In this document: positions 22,664 to 51,440 of the stretch, one piece after another
Numbering within the stretch: position 1 is the stretch's first letter
Layout: each line of letters starts with the position of its first letter
DNA from: Deltaproteobacteria bacterium
GTDB taxonomy: Bacteria; JACQOV01
NCBI GenBank assembly: GCA_016202395.1
Contig: JACQOV010000022.1
Location: 1 to 51,440 of the forward strand
DNA length: 51,440 nucleotides
Direction of reading: 5' to 3'
The notes under the pieces: model-generated
The model's database searches: none
Told to the model about the DNA's origin: nothing
The model's input: the letters and a program-made list of their open reading frames with translations, nothing else
Position numbers and translations under genes: made by a program

Positions 22664-22703
22664 ATAGCCTTAGCCTGTGGAATTTGTATCGAGAGGAAGG
22701 AAA

Positions 22704-23828
22704 ATGTCAAACGGAAATTCGCAAGTCCTTGTTGTGGACGATGATTTAGGGCCTCGTGAGACCTTGAAGATGATTCTCAAGGCTCACTACGGCGTATTCA
22801 CGGCAAGTGATGGGGAGGAGGCCCTCCAGGTTCTTGGGGCAGAGCCGATCGATTTAGTGACCTTAGATCTCAAAATGCCAGGGCTTTGTGGGACCGACCT
22901 TTTGAAAGAGATCAAGCGGCGCCACCCCGAAGTCCAGGTGATCATCATTACGGGCCATGGCACGATGGATACGGCGGTGGAGGGGATCCGACAAGGGGTC
23001 TGCGATTTTATCCAAAAACCGTACAACCTGATGGATCTTTTAAGCGCCGTCAAACGTTCGATTCAGGTTCGGGAATCCCAGAAGATGATGCGCTCGTTGT
23101 TTGAGGAGTTGAACGAGGCGGTCCGTTTCCGAGATACCACCTACGATGTGTTGGATCGAGTGAGGGCTCATCAAGAGGTTGTCCGTAAGGTCGAAGGTTT
23201 GATGCACCAGCCGACTTCGGAGAGAAGGCCTCAAGAGAATTCGAGTGAAACGTTGGAGTTTGCCAAAGTTTTGGCCCACACCCTAGAGAGTCAAGATCCT
23301 TACACCCATGGTCACTCTTGGCGAGTCTCTCACTATTCGATGTTGATTGCCGAGAAACTGGGCCTTAGCGATGGAGAGAAGCAAGATCTTCAGTTAGCGA
23401 GTTTCCTTCATGACATTGGGAAGCTTGGCGTGAATCTCCAATACATTCGGAAACCTGCAAGTCTCTCTAAGGAAGAATGGAAGACGATGAGACAACACCC
23501 GGTGAAAGGGGCAGATTTGGTAGCGCCACTCAATGTTCCGGAAGCGGTTCGGCAGGCGATTCGCCATCACCACGAATTTTATGATGGAAGCGGTTATCCC
23601 GACGGGCTCAAAGCGGAGCAGATCCCGCTCCCTGCGCGCATTGTGGGGATTGCCGACACCTATGATGCCATGGCCACCGACCGGCCCTACCGAAAAGCCC
23701 TATCCCGCGAAAAGATTATCGACGAATTCACCCGATTCTCCGGAATTCAGTTCGATCCTCGACTCGTGAAGATCATCTTGGAGCTGATTTCGGAGCAAGG
23801 GGATCTCCAAGCCAAACTTTTCTATTGA
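22704..23828 (+). CDS. REC + HD-GYP c-di-GMP phosphodiesterase (RpfG-like)
   Basis: VDDD..LDLKMP receiver; DPYT.GHS.RV; LHDIGK; HHE..DGSGYP; D.YDAM...RPYR. Confidence 0.94.
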   Translation: MSNGNSQVLVVDDDLGPRETLKMILKAHYGVFTASDGEEALQVLGAEPIDLVTLDLKMPGLCGTDLLKEIKRRHPEVQVIIITGHGTMDTAVEGIRQGVCDFIQKPYNLMDLLSAVKRSIQVRESQKMMRSLFEELNEAVRFRDTTYDVLDRVRAHQEVVRKVEGLMHQPTSERRPQENSSETLEFAKVLAHTLESQDPYTHGHSWRVSHYSMLIAEKLGLSDGEKQDLQLASFLHDIGKLGVNLQYIRKPASLSKEEWKTMRQHPVKGADLVAPLNVPEAVRQAIRHHHEFYDGSGYPDGLKAEQIPLPARIVGIADTYDAMATDRPYRKALSREKIIDEFTRFSGIQFDPRLVKIILELISEQGDLQAKLFY

Positions 23829-23879: not shown

Positions 23880-23919
23880 TGTATCATTTCTGTTACAAAG
23901 TTGTATCAGAACTGTTACA
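23880..23919. promoter_or_regulatory. tandem 18-bp palindromic operator TGTATCA-N4-TGTTACA x2
   Basis: Copies at 23880 and 23902; same motif at 46444 and 46465. Confidence 0.65.
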
Positions 23920-29116: not shown

Positions 29117-30226
29117 TCAAGAGGACAGGAGAGAATCCAATAATTTTTTAATTCCTGGCAAATTCACAATCTCAGAGGTGTGTTCGGGGATTAGAAGCAG
29201 AGGGAGATCGGTTTCCTTTCGGAGGCGATCGATCTGTTGGGAATCTCTCTGAGCCAGTATTTCTAGATTTCGAAGGTTTTCTAGGAGCTCTTTTTCGAGA
29301 TTCGCATCAGGCATGTCCAGTGAAGGGATCCGATCCCGATTCGCATTGGCGGAGAGGTAGGAACGATGGACGCGATTCACAATGAACCCTCCGCAAGGAA
29401 TCTGAGCTTGGCTCAACTGCTGGTGAAAGAATAGGGCTTCCTCAATAGCGCCAGGTTGCGGGGCGGTTACGATCAGAAAAATGGTTTCTTTGGAATGGAG
29501 GAGCTGATCGATCTTTTGGGCCCTTTCTCGGAAGCCTTCATACATCCCCTCAAAGTTGAGAGCAAATTCAGAGAGGTCTTTTAAAATTTCAAACCCGGTC
29601 AACTTCTCCGCCGTCTTTAGGAAAAACGCAGCCCCTTTTTGCAGAGCCTTCATGCCAGAGCGCCCCACGATCTTGGAGGGGAGAAAGATCCAACGTAAAA
29701 TCGATTCATCGATGAGATGGAGCATCTTCTGAGGCGTTTCAATGAAATCCAGCGCATGCCGAGAAGGAGGGGTATCTAGAACACAGAGATCGAATTCACT
29801 TTGTTGATAGATCTCTTGCAGCTTCTCCATCGCCATGTATTCATGAGAGCCAATCAGGGCAGTCGAGAGATGTTGGTAATAGCGATTCGATAAGATCTTT
29901 TTCGCTATTTCTCGAGAAGGGGCATATTTTTCAATCAAAAGATCAAAGGTCCGTTTGGTGTCGAGCATCATCGCAGAAAGGGTTCCGGGTGTCCCATTCG
30001 TTTGAAGCTCTCCCCATGGGATTGGATGAGGATCGTTTTCGAGAGAATTTAAGCCGAGAGCATTGGCCAGACGCCGCGCTGGATCAATCGTTATCACAGC
30101 GCTTCTCTTGCCTTCAAGGGCTCCATGCAAAGCAATGGCCGCGGAGAGGGTAGTTTTTCCAACCCCTCCACTCCCCACACAGACAATGACGCGACCCCCT
30201 TTAAGAATGGAATTGACCTTCTTCAT
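29117..30226 (-). CDS. ArsA/Get3-family ATPase (Rv3680/BagB-like)
   Basis: GSGGVGKTT, TIDPARRLA, EYMAMEKL, DTPPSRHALDF; ATGA coupling with the upstream gene. Confidence 0.88.
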   Translation of the reverse strand: MKKVNSILKGGRVIVCVGSGGVGKTTLSAAIALHGALEGKRSAVITIDPARRLANALGLNSLENDPHPIPWGELQTNGTPGTLSAMMLDTKRTFDLLIEKYAPSREIAKKILSNRYYQHLSTALIGSHEYMAMEKLQEIYQQSEFDLCVLDTPPSRHALDFIETPQKMLHLIDESILRWIFLPSKIVGRSGMKALQKGAAFFLKTAEKLTGFEILKDLSEFALNFEGMYEGFRERAQKIDQLLHSKETIFLIVTAPQPGAIEEALFFHQQLSQAQIPCGGFIVNRVHRSYLSANANRDRIPSLDMPDANLEKELLENLRNLEILAQRDSQQIDRLRKETDLPLLLIPEHTSEIVNLPGIKKLLDSLLSS

Positions 30227-31140
30227 AATTTTTCCGCCAAGATTTGGAGCTCCGGTTCTCGGATCGATTCTCTGAAAAGGAAGGGGAGCTCCGCACATTC
30301 CAGTGGATAGATCGCCTGTCGAAATTGTTCAAGATGGGTTTGCTGTCTTCGCTCGTAATAGTACATGTCTTCCGCCGCGTTAAGGGTCGCCTCCAGACAA
30401 GGGTTTTCAGAGCCCCTTAAACCCATCAGCCGCGAGGGGGCCCAACGGTGATCGAGCCTGGGGAATAGCGCATTCACAAAGAGCCGGCCTAACGCAACAG
30501 GAAACCCTTTTTGCACTTGCGCAATCATTTCCAAAGTTTCGTTTACAGGCATCTCTTCGGCAAGGGTCACTAAGTGCAGCTGTGTTCGCTCCGGGTTTCG
30601 AAGGATCTGAAGCACTTTCTTTGCCTCGCGATGAATGGGACCGACCTGAACGGCGTCGACCGTGACTTGGGGTGTTTTCAAAAAAAGAAGCCCATGACCT
30701 GTCGCTGGGGCATCCACAACGATAAAAGGGTAAAGGGGGCCTCCTGTTTCTGGATCTTTCCTTCTCTCTGCGAGGTGCCAGATCTTCCCAAGGATCAAAA
30801 GCTCTTTGAGCCCTGGAGCGGCGGAGAGGAGCTGCCGCACCACTTTCATATTCAGGAAAGGCTCATAGAGCCGTCGAACTTTGAGGCGGATATGGAGATA
30901 CTCCTTCATGGCGTCGAAGGCATGGAGGTTGATGCCGTAGAGGTGAGGGCGAAGTTGAACCTCGCGATAGCCGATCGGTTCTGCAAAGTTAAAGGACTGG
31001 CGCATGAACTCGTTGGATTCAATCTCCACTAAAAGGGTGCGTTTCCCTTGTTCAGCAAAGCGCAAGGCCATGGTGGCCGCCACCGTGCTTTTGCCGACCC
31101 CTCCTTTGCCTGAGATGAAGTTGAGTTGTGGGTTTATCAT
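30223..31140 (-). CDS. ArsA/Get3-family ATPase (Rv3679/BagA-like)
   Basis: GKGGVGKST, APGLKELL.LGK, DAPATGHG, LAEEMPVNET. Confidence 0.88.
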   Translation of the reverse strand: MINPQLNFISGKGGVGKSTVAATMALRFAEQGKRTLLVEIESNEFMRQSFNFAEPIGYREVQLRPHLYGINLHAFDAMKEYLHIRLKVRRLYEPFLNMKVVRQLLSAAPGLKELLILGKIWHLAERRKDPETGGPLYPFIVVDAPATGHGLLFLKTPQVTVDAVQVGPIHREAKKVLQILRNPERTQLHLVTLAEEMPVNETLEMIAQVQKGFPVALGRLFVNALFPRLDHRWAPSRLMGLRGSENPCLEATLNAAEDMYYYERRQQTHLEQFRQAIYPLECAELPFLFRESIREPELQILAEKL

Positions 31141-31146
31141 AAGGAA

Positions 31147-32364
31147 CTAAAAGGTGGCTTGGAGCATGGCGTTGCCTCCATCCCACGGGTGATTGACGAT
31201 CTCATCCAAATCCCAATTGGCGTTCAGAATCAGACGGAGGCTCTCTTTGGGATGAAACTCTAGCATCCATATCCCTTTATGTTCCGGCTCAAAAGAATCA
31301 AAATCGGACGCCGGATTGTTAGGAAACTCTCGCGTCCGCGCAATGTTTCCGAAAACATAACCGAGGTGAGGAGTGAGCCAGGAAAGCCATGGTTTTTGAT
31401 AAAGGAGATAAGGAATCCACTCCGTCCTTGCGAACTGGTTTTCGTTTTGAGGAGAGTGGGGTTGCTCCGTGTCCGTTTCTCGCTTTATCCATTGGAGCCC
31501 TAGCGTGAATTTTCCCCAGACTCCCCATTCCCTTTCGTAATACCCCTCCACGGTCCAGAGATTACGTTGGTAATCGATGTCATTGACCGTGAGCTCTGCG
31601 GTGTTAAAGGCCTCTCCTTCTCGCTTGTGTTCATAGGCCAAAAGTCCTCCAAGGATATTTTTCAAAAATCTATCATACCGAAGATCAATTTTTGCCTGAG
31701 TTCGGTTATAGTGGTAAAGAAGCCCCTCTTCGGCGTTATTAAAAAGGGTAGGGATATCCCGTTCAAAGAAGAAGAGGAGGTCCCATCTCGCAGGGAGATG
31801 CCATTCCCCTTCGGCGCGAAAGGTTTGTGGAAAATCAACATAGCGATTGGCGCTGTTCGTTCTTTTATTGAAATCGAAGTCGACATAGAGATAGCTCAAG
31901 CGTAGAAACCTCCGGATCGATTTTCGGTAGGTGAGGGCAAAGCCGGCATCATGCTCTTCTTTATTAAAGTGAGGTTCTCCCCAAACGCTTGCGTAGAAAG
32001 GTCCCACGGCTCTCGTTTCGAACTCCAAAAACTGGTGGAATTCCTCGAGATCTTGGTCTTCTTGCTGGAGAAGGTTGTACCGGAAAGCGACGCGAGAGGT
32101 AACGGGCAGCCGTAGCTTAAGCTCTTGATCGATTCGGAAGTGACAGCAGTCGAGACTCCCCACGGTGGTTCGAAATCCTTGCCAAGAGTCTCTCCATCTT
32201 TCTTCCCAATCTTTTGGAAAACGGAAAGCGAGATAATCCATAAACTCCTCTGAGTCGAACTGATCCTCTCTGTCAATCTCTTCCATCTGCTCCGGAATAA
32301 AAATCGCAAAAGCGCGTGAGGATAATAGGGAGAGCAATACAAGTAGAAAAGATTTCATCAACAT
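31147..32364 (-). CDS. predicted outer-membrane beta-barrel protein
   Basis: Signal peptide ending RAFA; alternating aromatic-rich strands; C-terminal Phe (LQATF). Confidence 0.65.
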   Translation of the reverse strand: MLMKSFLLVLLSLLSSRAFAIFIPEQMEEIDREDQFDSEEFMDYLAFRFPKDWEERWRDSWQGFRTTVGSLDCCHFRIDQELKLRLPVTSRVAFRYNLLQQEDQDLEEFHQFLEFETRAVGPFYASVWGEPHFNKEEHDAGFALTYRKSIRRFLRLSYLYVDFDFNKRTNSANRYVDFPQTFRAEGEWHLPARWDLLFFFERDIPTLFNNAEEGLLYHYNRTQAKIDLRYDRFLKNILGGLLAYEHKREGEAFNTAELTVNDIDYQRNLWTVEGYYEREWGVWGKFTLGLQWIKRETDTEQPHSPQNENQFARTEWIPYLLYQKPWLSWLTPHLGYVFGNIARTREFPNNPASDFDSFEPEHKGIWMLEFHPKESLRLILNANWDLDEIVNHPWDGGNAMLQATF

Positions 32365-32823
32365 CTAGGCTTCAATGGTCACTTCGCGAAGTGTGGTCGA
32401 CCTCTTTTGTTTGGAACGCTCAATAAGAACTTCAATCTCTTTAGCAAAGATCACTTCAATCGATTGAAGCGCCGCTAAACGACTCTGTTCCTCTAGATTC
32501 AAGAACTCTTTCTTCTTTAGAGTTTCCATCTCTCGATGGAGAACCTCTTGAACCGTTTGATACGCCTCTATACGGGCTTGATCCTTATCCATTCCCGATT
32601 CTGGCATCCGATGGATCGCAAGATCAATGATAGAGCGAAGCGCTTCACAGAGGGATTGAATGGAGGCCCCCACCGGAGTTCCTTCATAGCTTTGAGCCAT
32701 CTCCAAAAACAGCTGGAGCATGGAGCTTACGGCGAGAAGAAGCTCTTTTTGAGCCAAAAGAAAGTGAGTGAAGGCCTCCTGCAAGGCCTCATGGGTTTCC
32801 GAAGTAGACTTGGAATCGTCCAT
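32365..32823 (-). CDS. helical hypothetical protein
   Basis: Intact ORF inside the operon; amphipathic helices; C-terminal REVTIEA. Confidence 0.7.
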   Translation of the reverse strand: MDDSKSTSETHEALQEAFTHFLLAQKELLLAVSSMLQLFLEMAQSYEGTPVGASIQSLCEALRSIIDLAIHRMPESGMDKDQARIEAYQTVQEVLHREMETLKKKEFLNLEEQSRLAALQSIEVIFAKEIEVLIERSKQKRSTTLREVTIEA

Positions 32824-33952
32824 CTTGAAGCGCCGCCTTTTTCAATTGAAGTCTCGCCAGGGTATGGGGGAGAAAAATGTGCCGTCGCACCTCTTTCAAT
32901 TGGATGATCAATTCATCCCCTTTTACCCAGAGTTTTAAATCCCCCTTATCCGTGCCAGGAAGGAGGATCGAGACTAAATAATCCTCGTTTACAGGGCGGA
33001 TGTCAATGGGGTTTTCGTTATAGAAGGTCGCTGTGGGGTCTTTGTCCCCAAAAAGTTCGTGGGCCATTCGGGAAAGGAGCGCAACCCCCACAATCTCTTC
33101 TTCAAAGTAAGGGGAGATCAACAGCGGCAAAGGGTCAAAACGGTCCTTTGCCTCTTTCAGGTGTCGTTTCTGGATGGCGACCCATTTTTTAAGAGCGGGG
33201 TTATTCCATTCGTTGGGGAAAAGTCGATTCACAGCCACTGCGTCGACTCGATAGCCAAAGAGGCTTAAGGTCGCATAAGCCCTTTGGGCCTCTTTAATTA
33301 CCATTTTTTCAGGTTGAATCACCAATCGAATGTTGGTGTCGGGACCGGTGAGTAATCCGTGAATGCCTTCAATCCGCCGGTAGAGGTTTTCAACCGAGGC
33401 ATAAACGTCATCGTGGGGGAGAGGAAACTTCGTGATCTTTTCGGCAATAGGTCGGACCGCTTTTAAGATCTTTCGCTCGATGGGAAAAAAACGTTCCATG
33501 TACCAACGAAGAGCGTCGGGGAGACTTAAGAGCCTTGCAGTGGCCGCGGTTGGAGCGCAATCGACAATCACGACATCAAACTCTCCTGTTCCTGAGTATT
33601 CTTGAAGTTTGAGAAGATTGAAAAGCTCCTCCATCCCCGGCAGGATTGCCAGCTCTTGAGCCACGATGTCATTCAATCCTTGTTTTCGCAGAACCTGTGA
33701 GATGTAGGCGTGAATAGTTCCCCAATGGCTCTGGAGCTCTTGATGAACATTAATCTCTTGAGCGTAGAGTTTCTCTGTGATGGGGGTTGGATCAGCGCCG
33801 ACCGGTTTGTCGAAAGAGTCCCCTAAGCTGTGGGCTCCATCGGTGCTGATGACCAAGGTTTTGTGTCCTAGCTCAGCGCAACGCAACGCCGTTGCAGCGG
33901 AGATGGTCGTTTTGCCGACTCCTCCTTTACCGGTGTAAAGTAAGATCCTCAT
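32789..33952 (-). CDS. ArsA/Get3 ATPase with C-terminal alpha-crystallin (HSP20-like) domain (Get3d-like)
   Basis: GKGGVGKTT, STD.AHSL.D, PGMEE, DCAPT; C-terminal GDELII....RRHI.LP..L......A....G...V.F. Confidence 0.9.
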   Translation of the reverse strand: MRILLYTGKGGVGKTTISAATALRCAELGHKTLVISTDGAHSLGDSFDKPVGADPTPITEKLYAQEINVHQELQSHWGTIHAYISQVLRKQGLNDIVAQELAILPGMEELFNLLKLQEYSGTGEFDVVIVDCAPTAATARLLSLPDALRWYMERFFPIERKILKAVRPIAEKITKFPLPHDDVYASVENLYRRIEGIHGLLTGPDTNIRLVIQPEKMVIKEAQRAYATLSLFGYRVDAVAVNRLFPNEWNNPALKKWVAIQKRHLKEAKDRFDPLPLLISPYFEEEIVGVALLSRMAHELFGDKDPTATFYNENPIDIRPVNEDYLVSILLPGTDKGDLKLWVKGDELIIQLKEVRRHIFLPHTLARLQLKKAALQDGRFQVYFGNP

Positions 33953-43099: not shown

Positions 43100-43151
43100 G
43101 TATAAAAAACCCGTTAGTCTCTAAGCCCAACCTAGCCAGGAGGTGGTTTGG

Positions 43152-45914
43152 ATGAGTAAGCAAGATCCTCTCAAGCTCGCTTTCCAGGATCAAAAAATTG
43201 CTGCAGCCTTTTCCCACGAATTAAAATTCTTAAAGGCTAAGGGATTGAAGACCATGTGTCTCTTGGCGCTGACGCTTAATCCCGCGTTTTGCATCGTCGA
43301 TTATTTTGCTGTACCGGAAGATTCATTACATTTTTGGTTAGTTCGACTTATAGTCACCATCATTTGCGCTGGATTATTCCTTTTGTCCACAAGCAGGTTA
43401 GGTCCTAAGTATGCTGATTTGGGAGGTGTGTTTTTCTTTTTTCTCATAGGGATCATGATTTCTTACCTTATCAGGAAATCCGGTGGATACAGTAGCCCTT
43501 ACGCTTCTGGATTGACCGTAATTTTTATCGGGGGTGGGCTTCTGATGCCATGGAGTGGTTTGAAATATGCGTCTGTTTCCCTGTGTGTGTATTTAACCTA
43601 TTTTGTCCCCGCCCTGGTCTATGATGATATTTTGAATTCTAGCTTGTTTATTGCCAACAATGCGGTTTTGTTTTGTGGGGTCGTTATTGCGATTGTTGCC
43701 AGACGTGTCATTACGGTTTCAAATAAAAAGGAATTCTTAAGTCGATATAAACTTGGGCAAGCCCATGAGCAGTTAAAAAAGTTAGACGAGTTAAAGTCCC
43801 AGTTTTTTGCGAATGTATCGCATGAGTTGAGGACACCGCTCACGTTAATCCTGGCGCCGTTGGAGTCGATGCTTTCTGAGGAGGTTGGGGAAATGAAGGC
43901 TGAGCAGCAGCGGCATGCCAAACTGATGTACAACAATGGGCTTCGGTTGCTGAAGCTGATCAACAATTTGTTGGATTTGGCGAGATTGGATGCGGGGAAG
44001 ATGGAATTGAAGGCGCAGCCTGGGGATTTGAAGGTCTACATTCAAGGGTTGGTGGAGGGGATTGTACCGATGGCGAAGAAGAAGGGGCTCACGCTTTCCT
44101 TTGCCAATGGTCATGAGTTGCCGAAGGTGTCGTTTGATGAGGAGAAATTGGAGAAGGTGATTCTCAACCTAGTGTTTAATGCGATTAAGTTTACGCCGAG
44201 TGGAGGGAAGGTGGTGGTGAGGGTTGGGCAGAAGGACAGAGAGGTGAAAGTTGAAGTTGCTGACACGGGGATAGGGATTGCGAAGGAGCATCAGCAGAAG
44301 GTGTTTGATCGGTTTGCGCAGGCCGACTCCTCACTCACCCGAAAGTATGGAGGCACAGGGATTGGATTAGCGTTGGCCAAAGAGCTGGTGGAGTTGCATG
44401 GAGGCAAGATTGGGCTAACGAGTGAATTGGGAAAAGGGACGACGGTGGGGTTTACATTACCGGTGGTGAAAGGAGAGGCCGTTCATGGTTCGACAAAGCC
44501 TGTCCTGAGTTTATCGAAGGGCTCACCACGAACGGGGGAAGTGACGGAGGGGGGGGAGTGGACGGAGAAGCTTTACTCGGAGGCGGCACGAGCGGATTTG
44601 GATTTTGAGAAAGCGGAGATTGCGGAGCCTGTCCTGAGCGAAGTCGAAGGACCCACTCGCAATGATACTTCATCTGTCATCGCGAGGAGCCTGAAAGGCG
44701 ACGTGGCGATCTCATCCAAGCATCCTAAGATCTTACTCGTGGAGGACAGCTCTGAGATGAGGCAGTTTTTGCGATTCGAATTAAGCCCCTCGTATCAAAT
44801 TCTAGAGGCTCAGGATGGGATCGAAGGCTGGGAGAAGATGACTACAGAGAGGCCGGATCTGATTATTTCCGACATCATGATGCCTGGGATCGATGGGTAT
44901 GAGCTTACCCGTCGTTTAAAAACTAACGAGGAGACCCGACAGGTTCCGATCATTCTATTGACGGCCAAGACCGATCTCACGGATAAGATTGAAGGGTTAG
45001 AGGTTGGGGCGGACGATTATTTGATGAAGCCATTTAAGCCCAAGGAAATGAAAGCGAGAGTGAGGAATTTGCTTCAAGTGCGGCATCTTCAGGGGGAGCT
45101 TCAGGTCCGCAACCAGGAGTTGGATCAACTGAATTCAGGGTTGCAGGAGGAGGTAGAGAAACGAACACAAGCGTTAGTTCAATCGGAGAAGATGGCGATG
45201 TTAGGGGGGATGTTTTCGAGGTTAGCCCATGATTTAAAGAGTCCGTGGGCTTCCATTTATGAAGATGTGGGGATTCTGAAGGAGGTAGTGTCAAAAATGC
45301 AGCCGCATTTGACGAAGGAAGGAGTGGAATCGTATCAAGAGGTCCAGCAATGGACCGATTATATTGACAGCTCCGCCAAGATTATGGGGGAGATACTGGA
45401 AGGACTCAATGCCTATGGGAGGTCGGTGGAGGAGTGGGGGGAGGTGGATGTTGTCGACGGGATTCAGAGGATCTTAGGGATCTTTCGGAGGCAATGGAAG
45501 GGGAGGATCGAGATTCAAGAGGAATATGAGCCGCTCCTTCCTAAGATTTGGGGGCAATCTTCGACCTTAAATCGGATTTGGCTCAATCTTTTGTCGAATT
45601 CGGCTCAGGCGATGGAGCCTCAGGCGAAGGAAGGAAAAGGGATCGTCAAGATCGTCGCTCAACGCAATGAAACGGGGATTGGGGTGAAGATTCGAGACAA
45701 TGGGCCTGGGATACCGAAGGAACGGCTCTCCAAATTGTTCCAACCCTTCTACACCACCAAAGAGGAAGGCAAAGGAATGGGTTTGGGGCTCACGATCGCG
45801 CATGAGATCGTAGAGCGGCATGGAGGAAAGATCACCGTGGATAGCGAACCCGGCTCCTGCTCCTGGACTGAATTCACCGTGTGGCTCCCGATAAAAAGCC
45901 CCCAAAGCTCTTAA
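43152..45914 (+). CDS. hybrid sensor histidine kinase (TM sensor-HisKA-HATPase-REC-HisKA-HATPase)
   Basis: SHELRTPLT, NAIKFT, DTGIG, GGTGIGL; REC SDIMMP/KPF; second AHDLKSP, DNGPG, GMGLGL. Confidence 0.94.
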   Translation: MSKQDPLKLAFQDQKIAAAFSHELKFLKAKGLKTMCLLALTLNPAFCIVDYFAVPEDSLHFWLVRLIVTIICAGLFLLSTSRLGPKYADLGGVFFFFLIGIMISYLIRKSGGYSSPYASGLTVIFIGGGLLMPWSGLKYASVSLCVYLTYFVPALVYDDILNSSLFIANNAVLFCGVVIAIVARRVITVSNKKEFLSRYKLGQAHEQLKKLDELKSQFFANVSHELRTPLTLILAPLESMLSEEVGEMKAEQQRHAKLMYNNGLRLLKLINNLLDLARLDAGKMELKAQPGDLKVYIQGLVEGIVPMAKKKGLTLSFANGHELPKVSFDEEKLEKVILNLVFNAIKFTPSGGKVVVRVGQKDREVKVEVADTGIGIAKEHQQKVFDRFAQADSSLTRKYGGTGIGLALAKELVELHGGKIGLTSELGKGTTVGFTLPVVKGEAVHGSTKPVLSLSKGSPRTGEVTEGGEWTEKLYSEAARADLDFEKAEIAEPVLSEVEGPTRNDTSSVIARSLKGDVAISSKHPKILLVEDSSEMRQFLRFELSPSYQILEAQDGIEGWEKMTTERPDLIISDIMMPGIDGYELTRRLKTNEETRQVPIILLTAKTDLTDKIEGLEVGADDYLMKPFKPKEMKARVRNLLQVRHLQGELQVRNQELDQLNSGLQEEVEKRTQALVQSEKMAMLGGMFSRLAHDLKSPWASIYEDVGILKEVVSKMQPHLTKEGVESYQEVQQWTDYIDSSAKIMGEILEGLNAYGRSVEEWGEVDVVDGIQRILGIFRRQWKGRIEIQEEYEPLLPKIWGQSSTLNRIWLNLLSNSAQAMEPQAKEGKGIVKIVAQRNETGIGVKIRDNGPGIPKERLSKLFQPFYTTKEEGKGMGLGLTIAHEIVERHGGKITVDSEPGSCSWTEFTVWLPIKSPQSS
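44479..44713. repeat. REP/RPE-like palindromes inserted in frame in the kinase linker
   Basis: 44479..44535 CCGTTCATGGT...ACCACGAACGG and 44616..44713 GAGATTGC...GCGATCTC; both contain AGCCTGTCCTGAG...TCGAAGG. Confidence 0.8.
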
Positions 45915-45951: not shown

Positions 45952-46224
45952 TTAAGTAGGCTCTTGCTTTTTTTTGACCTCTTCCCAATCCACTGTTTCC
46001 CCCTTTTTGAAAAGTTCGCGACCTCTCTTAACGATCTTTTCGTACATCGCAAAATCTTCTTCATCCACAACCCGCTTAGGCGTCATCACGATTTTTTGGT
46101 TCTTTTCTTCTACTTCGAGATAACTTCCTTTGATCAATTTTAGATGCCTTGCGATAGGAATAGGGATCACCACCTGATTGTTGGAAGTCAGTCGAACAAG
46201 TTTTCTTAAAGGGTATCCTGCCAT
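45952..46224 (-). CDS. orphan AbrB/MazE-family DNA-binding protein
   Basis: VRLTSNNQVVIP..IAR.LKL..G.YLEV....KIVMTP. Confidence 0.8.
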   Translation of the reverse strand: MAGYPLRKLVRLTSNNQVVIPIPIARHLKLIKGSYLEVEEKNQKIVMTPKRVVDEEDFAMYEKIVKRGRELFKKGETVDWEEVKKKQEPT

Positions 46225-46443
46225 AGTAAGAATCTCCAATTTTAGTATTTACATAGATTCATAGTACCATTGATTTCCCCAAGCGTCAACCTCTTCACCT
46301 CTTCACATTCGACTTTAGTTAAATGCAGCCGGAAGTTTTCTTCCGCTCACTCTAAAACAAAACCCCCGATTTTGTTCTCAAAACCACTAGATTCGGTGGA
46401 TTTTATCCCAAAAGCTCCCTCCCCGTGCGTTAACGCACAGCGT

Positions 46444-46482
46444 TGTAACATTTTTGTTACAAAATGTAACAGTTTTGTTACA
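46444..46482. promoter_or_regulatory. tandem perfect palindromic operator TGTAACA-N4-TGTTACA x2
   Basis: Copies at 46444..46461 and 46465..46482, upstream of the FAAL gene. Confidence 0.7.
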
Positions 46483-46569
46483 AACTTATCCATAACTGTG
46501 TATAATTCTTCCGTCTGCAAGCTGGGTTTTTAGGGTACTATAAATAAGCAGTAAAGCATTAGGGAAGAC

Positions 46570-48294
46570 ATGCCATTTAGCTCCAATCTTGATGTTTCAA
46601 CCTTGATTGAGCTTCTTCGGTGTAGGGCTCAGCGGCACCCCGAGCAGTACGCTTACACTTTTCTGGATGACGGTGAAACCAACGAACTTCATTTGACCTA
46701 CAAAGAGTTAGACCGGAAAGCTCGGGCCATCGGCGCTTTGCTTCAGCGTATCGCGGCCGAGGGAGAACGTGCTCTGCTACTTTATCCTCAAGGATTAGAA
46801 TATATTGCTGCCTTTTTTGGATCAATTTACGCTGGCACTGTGGCCGTTCCTGTTTATCCTCCAGATCCTCTAATGCTAAATCGAACTTTGCCTCGGCTTT
46901 TAGGAATTGCCAAAGATGCTCAGGCATCAATAATCTTAACCACTTCCATCGTTCAGTCCATGGCTCAATCCATGATTGATCAGGCTCCCGATTTAAAAGA
47001 TTTGAAATGGTTAGTGACGGATAATCTTGAAGACGGAGCAGAAGAGGATTGGCAGGAACCCATTGTGGACAAGGAGACGGTTGTTTTTCTTCAATACACT
47101 TCTGGTTCAACCTCAGCGCCTAAGGGTGTGAAGATAAGTCACGGTAATCTCTTGCACAATCAACGAATGATTCAAGAGGCATTCGAACATACTGATCAGT
47201 CGACTTTTGTGGGATGGTTGCCCCTTTACCATGATATGGGACTCGTTGGTAATCTACTTCAACCCCTTTATATTGGCGCTCGGTGCATCCTCATGTCGCC
47301 GTTTCACTTTTTAAAGCGCCCAGTACGTTGGCTACAAGCGATTTCCCGCTATCAAGCTCAGACCAGTGGTGGACCCAATTTTGGCTATGACTTATGCGTA
47401 CGTAAAGTCACTGCTGAACAAAAGAAAGATTTAAATCTGAGTAGTTGGAGCTTGGCTTTTAATGGCGCTGAGCCTATCCGTGCAGAAACATTAGAACGTT
47501 TTGTAGAAGCATTTGAGCCGTGTGGATTTCGGCGCGAGACATTTTATCCTTGTTATGGACTTGCGGAAGCGACTTTGCTTGTTTCGGGGGGGATGAAGAA
47601 GGCGCCTCCTTTTGTACGAACCTTTTTGAAAACAGAACTTCAACGAAACGAGGCAATTGACATTTTTCCAAGTCAGGAGAGAACACAAACATTAGTAAGT
47701 TGCGGCCATGCGTTCTTGGACCAGAAAATTGTAATTGTTGACCCAGAGACATTGAAAGAATGTTCTTCTGGGCATATAGGTGAAATTTGGATAGCAGGCC
47801 CCAGTGTGGCTCAAGGTTACTGGAACCGAGGTGTGGAGACAGAGCTAACTTTTCGCGCGTACCTAGTAGATACCGAAGAAGGTCCCTTTTTAAGGACAGG
47901 CGATCTTGGTTTCTTGAAAGAAGGTGAATTGTTTGTCACCGGTCGCCTCAAAGATTTAATCATTATGGCTGGACAAAACTATTATCCACAAGATATCGAA
48001 TATACAGTAGAGCGAAGTCATTCCGTTTTGCGCCCGGGTTGTAGCGCGGCTTTTTCAATTGATTTTAACGACGCAGAACAATTAGTGATACTGGCAGAAA
48101 TAAATGCAGCGCAAAACTTTAGTTTGGATGAAGTAACAGGGATCATTCGAAGAACAGTAGGGCAGAATCATAACATACCTGTTCACGACGTGTGTCTTTT
48201 AAAGGCTGGGACCATTCCCAAGACTTCGAGCGGAAAGATTCAGCGTCATGCTTGTAAGACGAATTTTTTAAATAGAACTTTGGATTTTTTATGA
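46570..48294 (+). CDS. fatty acyl-AMP ligase (FAAL)
   Basis: LQYTSGST..PKGV, WLPLYHDMGL, YPCYGLAEATL, FAAL-type insertion, LRTGDLG, IPKTSSGKIQR. Confidence 0.93.
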   Translation: MPFSSNLDVSTLIELLRCRAQRHPEQYAYTFLDDGETNELHLTYKELDRKARAIGALLQRIAAEGERALLLYPQGLEYIAAFFGSIYAGTVAVPVYPPDPLMLNRTLPRLLGIAKDAQASIILTTSIVQSMAQSMIDQAPDLKDLKWLVTDNLEDGAEEDWQEPIVDKETVVFLQYTSGSTSAPKGVKISHGNLLHNQRMIQEAFEHTDQSTFVGWLPLYHDMGLVGNLLQPLYIGARCILMSPFHFLKRPVRWLQAISRYQAQTSGGPNFGYDLCVRKVTAEQKKDLNLSSWSLAFNGAEPIRAETLERFVEAFEPCGFRRETFYPCYGLAEATLLVSGGMKKAPPFVRTFLKTELQRNEAIDIFPSQERTQTLVSCGHAFLDQKIVIVDPETLKECSSGHIGEIWIAGPSVAQGYWNRGVETELTFRAYLVDTEEGPFLRTGDLGFLKEGELFVTGRLKDLIIMAGQNYYPQDIEYTVERSHSVLRPGCSAAFSIDFNDAEQLVILAEINAAQNFSLDEVTGIIRRTVGQNHNIPVHDVCLLKAGTIPKTSSGKIQRHACKTNFLNRTLDFL

Positions 48295-48309
48295 GTGAGG
48301 AATGAGTGA

Positions 48310-49572
48310 GTGAATAGGATGGAAATGCTCGGAATAAATAGTGAGAAAAATAGACTCTACTCTGATTGGAAGTATTGGGGGAGCAAATTAAAAACAGAAG
48401 AACTTCCGAATTTAACGATTTCAGAGGAAGAAAGAGAAGTATTGGAACTTGCTTATCGGGTATGTGAAAAAGAGATTGTTCCCGTTCGGGCCGAGTTAGA
48501 TGAGAAGGAAGAATTCCCTGAGAAGATTTTTGAAAAATTCAGGGAGGTCGGATTTTTTAGAGCAATGTTTGATTCTAAATACGGTGGCATGGGGTTGAGC
48601 AGAATGATGCCTTTTTACTTGCTGGAAGTAATCGCAGAACGTTGCTTAGGAGTTGCAACGGCTTTTGGCGCTTCTACTAGGTTAGCAGCTCTCCCAATCG
48701 AGTTGGGGGGAACAGAAGAGCAAAAGAAAGGATATTTAACAAAGTTAGCTAGTGGAGAATTTATAGGAGCTTTTGCTCTCACGGAACCTTCGGCGGGTTC
48801 TGATATTTCAAATCTTTCAACAACGGCAGTTAAGAAGGGAGCCAAGTATATTTTGAATGGGACGAAACAGTGGATAACGAATGCGGGGCGAGCGGATATT
48901 TATTGCATTTTTGCCTTAACAGATCGGAATAAAGATCCTCGTGCTAGCATTTCGTGTTTCATAGTGGAGAAAGGTTGGCCGGGTTTGTCTTTCGGAAAGT
49001 TAGAGAGAAAACTTGGTATCCGTTGTTCCCATACTCGGCAAGTGATCATGGAAGATTTAGAAGTTCCAGAGGAAAATTTGATTGGACTTGTTCCCAATAA
49101 AGGCTTAGCTCAAATCTTGAGAACTTTAAATCGCTCTCGATCAGGGGTGGCAGCGATCGCTGTGGGATTGGCGACAGGGGCCTATAAAGAGGCAGTTAAG
49201 TATGCATTTCAAAGGGAGCAGTTTAAACAGAAGGTGGTTCATTTTCAAGTGATACAGCATATGTTAGCGGACATGTTAACGAAGATCGAATCAGCTCGAT
49301 TATTGGCTTATAAAGCAGGGCGTTATTCTGCTGTAGATCATCCGGACGCGGGCCTGTTTTCTGCAATGGCCAAACATTATGCTTCAGAAATGGCGATGCA
49401 AGTTGCGACCGACGCATTGCAGATTCATGGAGGATATGGGTTTAGCCGAGAGTATCCGATAGAGAAAATGTTTCGAGATGCGAAGATTTTGTCAATATAT
49501 GAAGGAACCAATCAAATGATGAAAAATCAAATGAGTGCTTACATTGTTAAAGATGCTGGTAGGTTTTGTTAA
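48310..49572 (+). CDS. acyl-CoA/acyl-ACP dehydrogenase
   Basis: FALTEP.AGSD, LNGTK.WITN, KLGIR, REQF, QIHGGYG, IYEGTNQ. Confidence 0.94.
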   Translation: MNRMEMLGINSEKNRLYSDWKYWGSKLKTEELPNLTISEEEREVLELAYRVCEKEIVPVRAELDEKEEFPEKIFEKFREVGFFRAMFDSKYGGMGLSRMMPFYLLEVIAERCLGVATAFGASTRLAALPIELGGTEEQKKGYLTKLASGEFIGAFALTEPSAGSDISNLSTTAVKKGAKYILNGTKQWITNAGRADIYCIFALTDRNKDPRASISCFIVEKGWPGLSFGKLERKLGIRCSHTRQVIMEDLEVPEENLIGLVPNKGLAQILRTLNRSRSGVAAIAVGLATGAYKEAVKYAFQREQFKQKVVHFQVIQHMLADMLTKIESARLLAYKAGRYSAVDHPDAGLFSAMAKHYASEMAMQVATDALQIHGGYGFSREYPIEKMFRDAKILSIYEGTNQMMKNQMSAYIVKDAGRFC

Positions 49573-49607
49573 TGTTTTCTGAGCACCCAAACGGAGGGTC
49601 TAAGACG

Positions 49608-49868
49608 ATGCTTACAAAAGATGAAATGCAAAAAGAATTGATTCCCAAGTTTGCTGAGGAGTTAGGCCTCGAGGAACGAGGCATTGACATTAAAAAAGAT
49701 TTTAATGAATATGGTTTAAGTTCAGTGACAGCTGTTGGTTTAGTAGGGGAATTAGAAGAATTGTTAAGACAAGAACTTTCTCCTACTCTTATATTAGAAC
49801 ATCCTACCATTGAGTCATTAGCTCAATATCTCACTGATAAAGCAAACAATGGGATTGAAAAGGATTGA
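49608..49868 (+). CDS. acyl carrier protein
   Basis: F.EYGLSSV (Ppant Ser), L..EL....EHPTIESLAQYL; GGAGG RBS. Confidence 0.88.
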   Translation: MLTKDEMQKELIPKFAEELGLEERGIDIKKDFNEYGLSSVTAVGLVGELEELLRQELSPTLILEHPTIESLAQYLTDKANNGIEKD

Positions 49869-49953
49869 GGAAGGACGACCGCTTCCGATTAAGATTTATC
49901 TTGGTAGTTTAATGAAAAATCTAAATACTTGCTTGCATACCCGAGAGATCTAA

Positions 49954-51440
49954 ATGGATGCAAAATTACCCATACGCGAAGGCTCAAATAGTTATATTGA
50001 CCGTAGGCAAGTCAAGGCTCTTATTTTTCAGGATAGGCGCAAACAAGATAGAAGGAGGAAAAATGAAACTATACCGCGTGACTTACGTAAAAAAAAGATT
50101 GTGGGTGGGGATCCGAGGAGACGCGAGATTCGACGAGGTTTCTTTTGTCCTATTGAAGTGATGCCGGAATCTACATCGAGTCCAAATGTCGATATTAAAC
50201 ATGGTAAGATTCTCGATATATCCAACGGAGGGATGGCTATTATTGTGGAAGGTTCATGCGATTGGTTGGATTCTTGTGAGCAGATAAATGTGAAATGGTC
50301 TCCTTCTGAAACCGTTCTTGGAAAGGTTGTTTGGAAAAGAAATGTAGTGGGGTATTTGGGTAATGGCAACACATGGTTGCTTGGTTTAGAAATTAATCAG
50401 AAGGGTAAGACGGAAAATCAGACGCCCCAAATAATTTCAAAACAACCTGATAACCTTAAAAAAATTGCTTCTATATCTGAACTAACTGAAATAAAGTTTC
50501 ATCCTTGTTACATTGCAGGTGAAGACATTGATTCAGGAGTTTATCAATTTGCGATAAGCACTGATGGGTTGATTTCTGATCCGCAGAAAACAGTGGGGGA
50601 TTTAGAAAATCTAATGAAAGGTATAGTGCCTCATAATTATTGGGAAAGTGTTTATGGCGTTTACTCAATAGCGACGGAAGTTCTCATTGAGAAAGCCATT
50701 GATGGTGCGCACAAGGCTTGGCAGCAATTTCGTAATGTATCGATTTCTAGAAGAAAACAGGTGTTTTCTAGCATTTATGAGAATCTTATTAAGCATGAGA
50801 GGGAGTTGATCAATTTGATGGTAAAGGAAGGGCATCCCTTACGGCTTGCAAGATGGGAATATGCTGGGATGGTTAAGGGATATGAACCACAGACAATCAA
50901 TTTTTATGCAGATCAGTTGTTCAAGAAACTGGGTGTCGATAATGGCGAACATCTTTTCCTCGCTAGAAAACCAGATGGCGTAGTTTGTATCTTTCCCCCT
51001 AGCAACGCTCCTTGCCCTAATTCTTTGGTGTCAGCTTTCGCATTACTAGCAGGTAATTCTGTAATTGTCAAACCACCTCTTCGTACTCCCATATCCACTT
51101 TGTATTTGTGGAAAAATATTATCATCGAGGCACTAGAAGAGAATGGTGTAAACCCAGGAATAGTCAGTTTAATTATTGGTGATTCATCAAAAATATTGGA
51201 TAAATGCATGTCAAGTCCAAAAGTTAATGATATAGTGTATTTCGGGGACAGTGATAGTGGATTGAAAATCGGGCTACATGCCTATGCAAAAGGAAAGAAG
51301 CCTATCTTGGAAATGTCTGGTAATGATGCAATGGTTATATGGAAAGATGCAGATCTTGAGGGTGCTGCTACTTCTCTTGTCGAAGGGTTTTTAGGATCAA
51401 TGCAGATGTGTATGGTAGCCAGGCGTGCGATAGTTCATCC
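49954..51440 (+). CDS. PilZ domain-aldehyde dehydrogenase fusion (partial, runs off the window end)
   Basis: Manually translated open frame from ATG 49954: RREIRR and DISNGG PilZ motifs; then P.N.P, AGNSVIVKPP, YFGDS, LEMSGND, GSMQMC ALDH motifs. Confidence 0.85.
   Translation, partial: MDAKLPIREGSNSYIDRRQVKALIFQDRRKQDRRRKNETIPRDLRKKKIVGGDPRRREIRRGFFCPIEVMPESTSSPNVDIKHGKILDISNGGMAIIVEGSCDWLDSCEQINVKWSPSETVLGKVVWKRNVVGYLGNGNTWLLGLEINQKGKTENQTPQIISKQPDNLKKIASISELTEIKFHPCYIAGEDIDSGVYQFAISTDGLISDPQKTVGDLENLMKGIVPHNYWESVYGVYSIATEVLIEKAIDGAHKAWQQFRNVSISRRKQVFSSIYENLIKHERELINLMVKEGHPLRLARWEYAGMVKGYEPQTINFYADQLFKKLGVDNGEHLFLARKPDGVVCIFPPSNAPCPNSLVSAFALLAGNSVIVKPPLRTPISTLYLWKNIIIEALEENGVNPGIVSLIIGDSSKILDKCMSSPKVNDIVYFGDSDSGLKIGLHAYAKGKKPILEMSGNDAMVIWKDADLEGAATSLVEGFLGSMQMCMVARRAIVH

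Follow-up and report, generated by a model that had tools for sequence, protein, structure and literature searches.

The window analysed here, the whole 51,440-nt stretch that makes up contig C103 (JACQOV010000022.1) of a Deltaproteobacteria assembly (G000; 1.9 Mb, 108 contigs, 89% complete), ends inside a gene that joins a PilZ domain to an aldehyde dehydrogenase (ALDH). Judged against its homologues, this PilZ-ALDH is a genuine fusion and not an artefact. It belongs to an uncharacterised ALDH subfamily that is usually encoded within a signalling unit, made up of the ALDH, a HisKA_7TM-GAF kinase and a receiver. In the window it follows genes for a fatty acyl-AMP ligase (FAAL), an acyl-CoA/acyl-carrier-protein dehydrogenase (ACAD) and a free acyl carrier protein (ACP); the PilZ-fused form of the ALDH and its link to FAAL-ACAD-ACP are new parts. 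With confidence slightly better than even, we read the four genes as a foreign operon (FAAL, ACAD, ACP, PilZ-ALDH) behind a host-type operator, in which an ALDH controlled by cyclic di-GMP (c-di-GMP) would act on an ACP-linked fatty chain. The sequencing runs that hold the window sequence are labelled groundwater metagenome, with no RNA data set among those listed, and all 40 sampled relatives of the host are kin at domain level only, which places the host on a sparsely sampled branch.

A PilZ-ALDH fusion at the contig end

The PilZ-ALDH open reading frame (ORF) starts with ATG at 49954 on the forward strand and stays open to the contig end at 51440 (codons to 51438), encoding 495 visible residues. 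An earlier sequence-only reading of this DNA had described the frame and its absence from the program-made list of ORFs; it is absent because it is open at the 3' end, and such frames are listed only when open ends are requested. Homologues are 698-717 aa long, so about 200 C-terminal residues are missing, and the visible ORF ends at position 278 of the 461 in the Aldedh profile. An Aldedh family search of the assembly gave five matches, none of them a 3' fragment, and tblastn of the assembly with the C-terminal parts of two close homologues (P0002 and P0006) returned other ALDH paralogues only. Contigs from the sequencing runs reach beyond the end of the window by 146, 37 and 65 nt; run coverage is 3-9x and fragmentary, which explains the contig break.

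The visible protein begins with an Arg-rich segment of (D/E)RR repeats (residues 16-35; 49999-50058, +), continues with the PilZ domain (residues 55-147; 50116-50394, +) and passes into the ALDH body (50476-51438, +), which opens with a subfamily-specific N-terminal segment from residue 175 and then enters Aldedh. An RRR-x2-RR stretch at residues 55-61, from nt 50116, holds the RxxxR motif (R56, R60), and DISNGG (D88-I-S90-N-G-G93) begins at nt 50215. The ALDH part carries Asn351, Lys373, Glu453 within LEMSG, and Cys486 at nt 51409. The Arg-rich stretch, both PilZ motifs, the LEMSG Glu, the Cys and a run of eight A (A8; 50089-50096) had all been located correctly from the letters alone. Pfam finds both domains in the ORF, as the sequence-only reading had predicted: PilZ at residues 55-134 (25.0 bits, cut-off 22.5; 28.5 bits in a six-frame genome search) and Aldedh at residues 231-495 (139.5 bits, profile positions 17-278 of 461).

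An indel in the A8 run had been named as a way in which the fusion could be spurious, and this does not hold. In A1, a seven-sequence alignment of the window ORF and its close homologues, the reading frame holds upstream and downstream of the run, with D16, R18 and R29 invariant upstream of it. Across the A8 run and the junction between the domains, contigs from four sequencing runs of one study show neither differences nor indels (0 of each). Because these sequencing runs may include the source sample, the reading frames of the homologues carry more weight. The Arg-rich (D/E)RR repeats themselves have no Pfam match. They lie before PilZ in the window's clade and in L033 and L082, and after PilZ, in the PilZ-ALDH linker, in other fusions; carriers are L055, L031, L060, L033 and L082 and the proteins P0014, P0025, P0029 and P0032.

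Searching 5.8 billion proteins with the ORF gave 77 matches, six of which (656-717 aa) cover 96-97% of it at 50-53% identity; one of these close fusions is from Candidatus Manganitrophus noduliformans and one from a Thermodesulfobacteriota metagenome-assembled genome. Precomputed annotations list PilZ plus Aldedh on nine matches, comprising eight more divergent proteins and P0007, one of the six. A profile search of 1.84 billion representatives returned 760 matches at E <= 1e-30, of which about 35 score above 400 bits and make up a compact subfamily. In fifteen representative clusters, counting that of the window, the alignment takes in the PilZ region and what follows it, and Pfam detects PilZ plus Aldedh in 12 of the 12 scanned; the architecture is therefore rare, and a family rather than a one-off. 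The sequence-only reading had known of no characterised PilZ-ALDH enzyme, and literature searches likewise returned none, whereas the architecture is not unique. In the portions of the literature available to these searches, no description was found of a PilZ-ALDH fusion, a REC-ALDH or an ALDH/7TM-kinase unit; searches on Manganitrophus aldehyde dehydrogenase and on a FAAL+ACP+ALDH+ACAD gene cluster gave no relevant publication. Among the host's 40 sampled relatives no match covered residues 1-216. Scanning genome contigs with a single protein gave no locus, and scanning with A1 gave only four distant, unfused loci.

Conservation is concentrated at the expected binding and catalytic positions. 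Invariant in A1 are R55, R56, R60, I89, S90, G93, N351, K373, E453 and C486; the last four are also invariant in a second alignment (A2). Ten N-terminal domains with 14-22% identity to the window's share only R56, R60, S90, G93 and G144 as invariant residues. An AlphaFold2 model of the N-domain, folded with the alignment of these domains, forms a beta-barrel at residues 61-147 (pLDDT 74-92). Structure prediction, a check that the sequence-only reading had proposed, yields a PilZ-like fold: all 13 Foldseek matches in the Protein Data Bank (PDB) at E <= 0.001 are PilZ c-di-GMP receptors (BcsA, YcgR, MrkH, PlzA, PP4397, MapZ and MotI), with modest TM-scores (TMq 0.35-0.45), the best match being BcsA (4hg6_A, E 1.1e-4). 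From motifs and model together, the domain is predicted to be of the canonical c-di-GMP-binding type. The best solved relative of the ALDH is a glyceraldehyde dehydrogenase (E 2.5e-31, ALDH part only), and no solved chain among the PDB sequence matches covers both the PilZ and the ALDH parts.

Gene context of the ALDH subfamily

Proteins akin to the ALDH part are encoded in 71 related loci (4 from genomes and 67 from metagenomes), whose ORFs were predicted with a simple greedy caller, crude above all in high-GC DNA, and whose neighbouring genes were scanned with Pfam. The window ALDH is 40-49% identical to most of these ALDHs over residues ~180-495 and 27-36% identical to a few distant ones. 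The downstream gene is assessable in 43 loci; the other 28 have no ORF spanning the match (8), end early (19) or are an unscanned duplicate (1). In 33 of the 43, the next gene on the same strand encodes a HisKA_7TM protein, usually a 7TM-GAF-HisKA-HATPase kinase of ~700-770 aa. Two more are followed by a GAF-HATPase kinase lacking a 7TM match, four by a GMC oxidoreductase and four by another gene (the actinobacterial L016 and L019, L074 and L077). The GMC gene precedes a 7TM-GAF kinase in L050, and GAF-HD-GYP and 7TM-GAF-HD-GYP genes in L040. Of the loci that extend far enough to include the gene after the kinase, about 14 have a single-domain receiver there, and tandem 7TM kinases recur among the related loci. 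The sequence-only reading had taken a fatty-acyl biosynthetic cluster as the setting of the ALDH and proposed comparing neighbourhoods; that comparison shows the conserved context to be a signalling unit of 7TM-GAF kinase and receivers, which was missed because the contig ends inside the ALDH gene.

The regulatory input differs from member to member. Among the 63 loci with an ALDH ORF, Pfam finds a fused PilZ in eight; one more has PilZ as a split ORF (L052) and two are assigned PilZ by BLASTP to PilZ-bearing sister copies (L024, 67%; L030, 79%). A REC domain is fused in one locus (L039; also in proteins P0086 and P0185), and a stand-alone REC gene lies directly upstream on the same strand in 15. 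An ACP gene occupies the directly upstream position in seven, as in the window, and an HTH_17 gene in five. The N-terminal extensions of L077 and L085 match no Pfam family. On these gene arrangements, the regulatory input is interchangeable within the subfamily, taking the form of fused PilZ, fused REC or stand-alone upstream REC. Such a swap of input modules on one scaffold is a natural experiment, and it points to the ALDH as the regulated output of a two-component or c-di-GMP pathway.

A quick IQ-TREE analysis of 63 ALDH domains (11 short rows dropped, unrooted) places the window inside the tree of the subfamily, in a clade with 100% support that it shares with the PilZ-fused proteins P0002/3/5/6/7. 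Over the tree as a whole, fusions to PilZ are scattered among REC-linked and ACP-linked forms, and well-supported branches force at least four changes, whether by repeated gain or by repeated loss of PilZ.

Genes for c-di-GMP signalling and for lipid handling recur in these neighbourhoods. HD-GYP genes are present in L025, L040, L050 and L073, and additional PilZ proteins in L041 (three, including a PilZ-methyltransferase) and L073 (a PilZ-LuxD-like-methyltransferase protein). Lipid-handling neighbours include FadL (L047 and L055), MMPL (L039 and L016) and a PlsC-type acyltransferase (L057), and ACAD accompanies the electron-transfer flavoprotein (ETF) alpha and beta genes in L041. Just upstream of the ALDH unit, L039 (2385-6393) and L057 (5851-9593) encode a 526-530-aa SRPBCC (Polyketide_cyc)+NAD-binding protein, and the gene directly after it specifies a second 7TM-GAF kinase, specific to this pair. 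It seems that kinases of this type pair with more than one sort of lipid-type enzyme.

Several loci are unusual in other respects. In L043 and L046 (9482-15212), the ALDH, GAF-kinase and REC genes lie between rpmE (L31) and prfA, downstream of rho. The Thermoleophilaceae locus L016 has the ALDH beside a P450-fusion, a methyltransferase, MMPL and a divergent FAAL. Other fusions of the same ALDH lineage are an EF-hand+ALDH protein of 743 aa in a Streptomyces (P0052) and an ALDH+P450 protein (P0101), and an ALDH-like stretch occurs in P0162, a protein of 5578 aa. In the host itself, HisKA_7TM is found on C95 (L093, 2304-5123), in a 7TM-GAF protein fused to a sigma-54 activator and a Fis helix-turn-helix, without kinase domains, and on C57 (L094, 6977-9925), in a protein likewise fused to a sigma-54 activator and a Fis helix-turn-helix and not to kinase domains, whose gene lies near ETF alpha/beta and a patatin-like phospholipase; one of the two also contains PDZ. 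The C95 gene adjoins an ORF of at least 2939 aa with SpvB and RHS-repeat matches (L093, 5182-13998), which leaves the fetched stretch.

The FAAL-ACAD-ACP genes and the low-GC block

Three genes precede the fusion on the forward strand: a FAAL of 574 aa (46570-48294; Pfam AMP-binding, 234 bits, plus a DIP2-like C-domain), an ACAD of 420 aa (48310-49572; Pfam Acyl-CoA_dh_N, _M and _1) and a free ACP of 100 aa (49566-49868; Pfam PP-binding, 54.2 bits). Pfam supports, at the coordinates given by the sequence-only reading, the three identities that it had proposed. The 3' end of the ACAD gene overlaps the start of the ACP gene by 7 nt, and 85 nt separate the ACP gene from PilZ-ALDH. The operon ACP is one of two PP-binding matches in the whole assembly. 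The top NCBIfam matches of the FAAL are FAAL models (PRK12476, 467 bits; PRK05850, 464; FadD32, 452), all under their curated cut-offs of 775-975, and its closest database relatives are named 'fatty acyl-AMP ligase' by their sources. It shares ~60% identity with thousands of FAALs, including many lipopeptide starters from cyanobacteria. Among its top 120 relatives no entry is named from the organisms that hold the closest fusions, a weak negative given that most entries are nameless. A FAAL relative, P0326, and the close fusion P0003 both list a longest contig of 5226 bases; the two might share one contig, in which case a FAAL would stand beside a close PilZ-ALDH. The ACAD scores best against an AcrC-type model (360 bits, cut-off 640) and is nearest to AcrC/butyryl-CoA-dehydrogenase types.

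These matches bear on the proposal that the trio is the starter cassette of a secondary metabolite, priming a lipopeptide or polyketide encoded past the contig end, with PilZ-ALDH as an unrelated signalling neighbour. We regard this as unlikely. It would account for the ~58-61% identity of the FAAL to FAALs that have ACP and condensation domains in the same protein or next to it (a puwainaphycin PuwI entry among them), for the resemblance of the ACP to polyketide synthase (PKS)-type ACPs and for the 85-nt gap before the ALDH gene. However, no non-ribosomal peptide synthetase or PKS genes are in view, the ACP-ALDH adjacency recurs in seven loci without biosynthetic genes, and the four window genes are alike in low GC and in low GC at third codon positions (GC3). 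The analogy to MbtM/N/L of mycobactin or to friulimicin LipA/B/D, drawn by the sequence-only reading, also fails at family level: the ACAD scores 51.2 bits against the MbtN model (cut-off 700) and the FAAL 210 bits against MbtM (cut-off 621).

The drop in GC begins at ~45.95 kb and continues to the contig end. The block has a GC content of 0.419 against a genome mean of 0.494 (standard deviation (sd) 0.0195, z = -3.85), bearing out the earlier remark that it is AT-richer than the rest of the window. Just 6 of 2822 same-size genome windows are equally low, and two of those six are the block itself. GC3 of the block genes is 0.29-0.38, compared with 0.58 in the adjacent kinase gene. This atypical composition is compatible with horizontal acquisition, as the sequence-only reading had proposed, and the block is probably an acquired island in the host chromosome. 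A divergent gene for an AbrB/MazE-type (SpoVT-AbrB) small DNA-binding protein (45952-46239, -; Pfam MazE_antitoxin, 31.6 bits) marks its left edge.

Upstream of FAAL, two tandem 18-bp palindromes (TGTAACA-N4-TGTTACA) at 46444-46461 and 46465-46482 have the form of an operator. The best sigma-70-like promoter match (GTTACA-18-TATAAT; 46477-46506, +) agrees with 10 of 12 consensus positions and lies 64 nt before the FAAL start, and its -35 element is overlapped by a half-site of the second palindrome; the site is a consensus match only, the total number of such sites in the region not exceeding that in shuffled sequences. Inspection by eye, with no tool run, showed no sigma-54 promoter (GG-N10-GC) between the palindromes and FAAL. 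The genome holds 10 exact copies of the palindrome on eight contigs, mostly as pairs 22-23 bp apart. Besides the FAAL pair, these are eight copies on seven other contigs (C15, C41, C52, C55, C79, C88 and C106), and a pair with one mismatch stands at 23880/23902 (window 23880-23919), in the normal-GC part of this contig. Neighbours of the copies encode PBP1, MMPL, a diacylglycerol-kinase-like protein with a Tam41-like gene, two sigma-54 activators and several products of no assigned function. The palindrome looks like an operator or upstream activating sequence of an envelope/lipid regulon, and its distribution suggests that the foreign block may have come under a host regulator. We also asked whether the palindrome marks the terminus of a mobile element; this was ruled out, as its neighbours are envelope/lipid genes and sigma-54 activators, with no transposase.

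The spread of palindrome copies across the genome also argues against a chimeric assembly, in which a low-GC block from another organism would have been wrongly joined or binned with the host. The position of the block at a contig end, its GC content 3.85 sd below the genome mean and the low, fragmentary run coverage would all suit a chimera; nevertheless, the promoter palindromes recur outside the block, and contigs C74, C90 and C51 contain equally GC-poor regions. We consider a chimera very improbable.

The remaining window (1-45.9 kb) is ordinary chromosome, with genes for haem synthesis, Trk, RNase G, RtcB, SurA and a sigma-54 response regulator. It includes a REC-HD-GYP gene (22677-23825) and a hybrid kinase gene (43143-45911), the latter adjoining the low-GC block. 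Three ArsA-type ATPase genes stand in a row at 29120-33952 (-), with two ORFs (405 and 152 aa) that have no Pfam match.

Predicted gating, catalysis and comparison with known systems

In the proposed mechanism, c-di-GMP would bind the RxxxR and DxSxxG site of the PilZ domain and change the packing of the barrel on the ALDH catalytic half, switching the enzyme on or off. Docking was run on the PilZ domain (50-170) and ALDH body (185-703) of P0002, with a custom 24-row alignment and with two c-di-GMP molecules along, the ligand not being scored. The pair reached a docking score of 0.78, and the best of three controls 0.40; the 0.78 mark is attained by 116 of the 157 solved complexes and by 2 of the 215 mismatched pairs, counts that apply only roughly because the calibration was made without custom alignments or ligand. 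At least 58% of contacts recur between runs, and partner pLDDT is 72 or higher. These figures express the confidence of a model. The confidently predicted interface joins PilZ residues 65-70, just past RxxxR, and 91-93, at the start of NxSxxG, to ALDH residues 534-567. The docked interface would thus adjoin both c-di-GMP motifs, which fits a BcsA-like packing change on ligand binding. The assembly contains seven GGDEF, three HD-GYP and four PilZ matches, of which the first two classes indicate a host able to make and break c-di-GMP.

Alternatively, PilZ could be merely a structural or oligomerisation appendage, or bind another ligand, leaving the ALDH outside c-di-GMP control. A marginal Pfam score, a fused copy without the catalytic Glu and Cys (L076) and the existence of PilZ domains that have lost c-di-GMP binding (10.1101/814665, as far as its accessible text goes) are in keeping with this. 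Against it, binding residues make up four of the five positions that are invariant over very divergent fusions, the host has GGDEF and HD-GYP enzymes, and PilZ domains in fusion proteins retain their motifs according to the same part of that preprint. An appendage role therefore strikes us as quite improbable. The preprint lists domain architectures of PilZ proteins, and a term search of the part available found neither 'dehydrogenase' nor 'enzym'.

The ALDH would act on a hydrophobic aldehyde with a fatty chain, or on the corresponding ACP thioester. Its partner may be the free ACP, with FAAL loading a fatty acid onto this carrier and ACAD making the 2-enoyl form. General-base Glu is required by hydrolytic ALDHs. 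Whether fused to PilZ or linked to REC, ACP or HTH, members with a complete sequence retain the Asn, Lys, Glu and Cys. The single exception, the PilZ-fused L076 (9608-11398), has Lys for Glu and Arg for Cys and lies two genes downstream of an IS110-family transposase; this copy is probably degenerate or non-catalytic. The universal retention of the Glu tilts us, by a narrow margin, to the oxidative direction (aldehyde to acid or acyl-ACP) over reductive release. GMC oxidoreductases are the classical alcohol-to-aldehyde partners of oxidising ALDHs, and by analogy their presence after the ALDH offers modest further indication of the oxidative direction, with thioester chemistry on ACP still compatible.

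The opposite direction defines the most substantial alternative, a reductive, LuxCDE-like synthase in which FAAL would load ACP, ACAD would produce trans-2-enoyl-ACP, and the ALDH would run in reverse as an acyl-ACP reductase releasing an (2-en)al under c-di-GMP control through PilZ. The order FAAL-ACAD-ACP-ALDH with overlapping ACAD and ACP genes, the ACP gene directly before the ALDH in seven other loci, and a LuxD-like acyltransferase fused to PilZ upstream in L073 are all in line with it, as are weak LuxC (PF05893) matches in some relatives (P0013 and P0073, precomputed; L074, 24 bits; P0079, 16.5 bits). The window ORF, however, has no LuxC match at E <= 0.1, the general-base Glu is kept in all complete members, the ACP-linked ones included, and a GMC oxidoreductase follows the ALDH in four loci. 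We hold this synthase to be possible, and clearly less probable than the c-di-GMP-controlled operon outlined at the start.

Several observations weigh against that operon reading. The Pfam score of the PilZ domain is barely above its cut-off (25.0 versus 22.5), and the NCBIfam ALDH models all score far below their cut-offs (112-154 bits for the best, against 650-770). Gene order, ACP adjacency and the weak LuxC matches in relatives fit the reductive direction equally well. In tblastn searches with the window proteins, FAAL lies near the ALDH in 1 of the 71 related loci (L016, on the divergent strand) and ACAD in two (L041 and L066, 4-5 kb upstream, 45-46% identity); by this comparison, FAAL and ACAD are local additions and not conserved partners of the ALDH. 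Pfam found no AMP-ligase or other ACP-loading enzyme beside the ACP in the other ACP-linked loci. Taken with the generic relatives of the FAAL, these results mean that two separate units may have come to lie side by side by chance. Because the contig stops within the ALDH gene, the position of the expected kinase is out of view, and the host's two HisKA_7TM genes belong to sigma-54 activators elsewhere (C95 and C57), with no ALDH fragment adjoining. Near-duplicate loci (L020/L021, 99.6%; L043/L046; L058/L059; L066/L067) also mean that the counts overstate independence.

Beyond the contig end, the gene after PilZ-ALDH would be expected to encode a 7TM-GAF kinase. As a tentative extension that we think improbable but worth stating, the ALDH and kinase might form a lipid-signal circuit. 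FAAL-ACAD-ACP would supply an ACP-bound 2-enoyl chain, the ALDH would make or destroy a fatty aldehyde or 2-enoyl-type ligand read by the kinase, and kinase output would return through receivers or through HD-GYP and c-di-GMP. In that case PilZ-ALDH would be the first example of a redox enzyme under direct c-di-GMP gating, and it would close a feedback loop like that of the diffusible signal factor (DSF). In the literature accessible in part, HisKA_7TM is listed as a sensor domain and its ligand is nowhere named; the substrate or product of the ALDH is an obvious candidate ligand for these kinases, and the FAAL-ACAD-ACP genes of the window would narrow the search to fatty chains. To our knowledge, PilZ control of enzymes is confined to polysaccharide synthases and co-polymerases, the remaining PilZ partners known being signalling proteins. 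If the proposal is right, a PilZ-gated dehydrogenase extends direct c-di-GMP control to redox and lipid metabolism.

Known systems share parts of this arrangement. The Rpf/DSF system (RpfF/RpfB/RpfC/RpfG) and CqsA/CqsS combine a lipid-derived signal, a fatty-acid-activating enzyme and a membrane sensor kinase, and an HD-GYP regulator ties Rpf to c-di-GMP. Related loci resemble them in their 7TM kinases, REC-HD-GYP or HD-GYP genes and PilZ proteins. Here, however, there is no RpfF crotonase or CqsA-type synthase, the sensor is of the HisKA_7TM-GAF type and the enzyme is an ALDH. MbtM/MbtN/MbtL and friulimicin LipA/B/D bring the same three Pfam types (FAAL, ACAD and free ACP) together in one operon, whereas the window genes are not their equivalogs and no siderophore or lipopeptide genes are in view. 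LuxCDE comprises an AMP-forming acyl activator, an acyl transferase/carrier and an ALDH-like reductase, a component set mirrored here and echoed by the LuxD-like and weak LuxC matches in relatives; the window ALDH differs in having no LuxC match, in keeping the hydrolytic Glu and in being accompanied by an ACP as carrier and by an ACAD. In ALDH1L1 (10-formyltetrahydrofolate dehydrogenase), a 4'-phosphopantetheine arm delivers a thioester-bound group to the ALDH active site, and ALDH1L1 chains (7yjj_B and 2o2p_A) are among the distant PDB sequence matches. There the carrier is fused and the substrate formyl, whereas in the window ACP is a separate gene and the substrate presumably a long chain. 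The closest parallel for gating is BcsA, the best structural match of the N-domain model and likewise an enzyme with a covalently fused canonical PilZ, in which c-di-GMP at RxxxR/DxSxxG alters the packing of PilZ on the catalytic domain. By analogy, the gating logic of PilZ-ALDH may be the same; BcsA is a membrane glycosyltransferase, whereas PilZ-ALDH has its PilZ at the N terminus of a predicted soluble, NAD(P)-dependent dehydrogenase.

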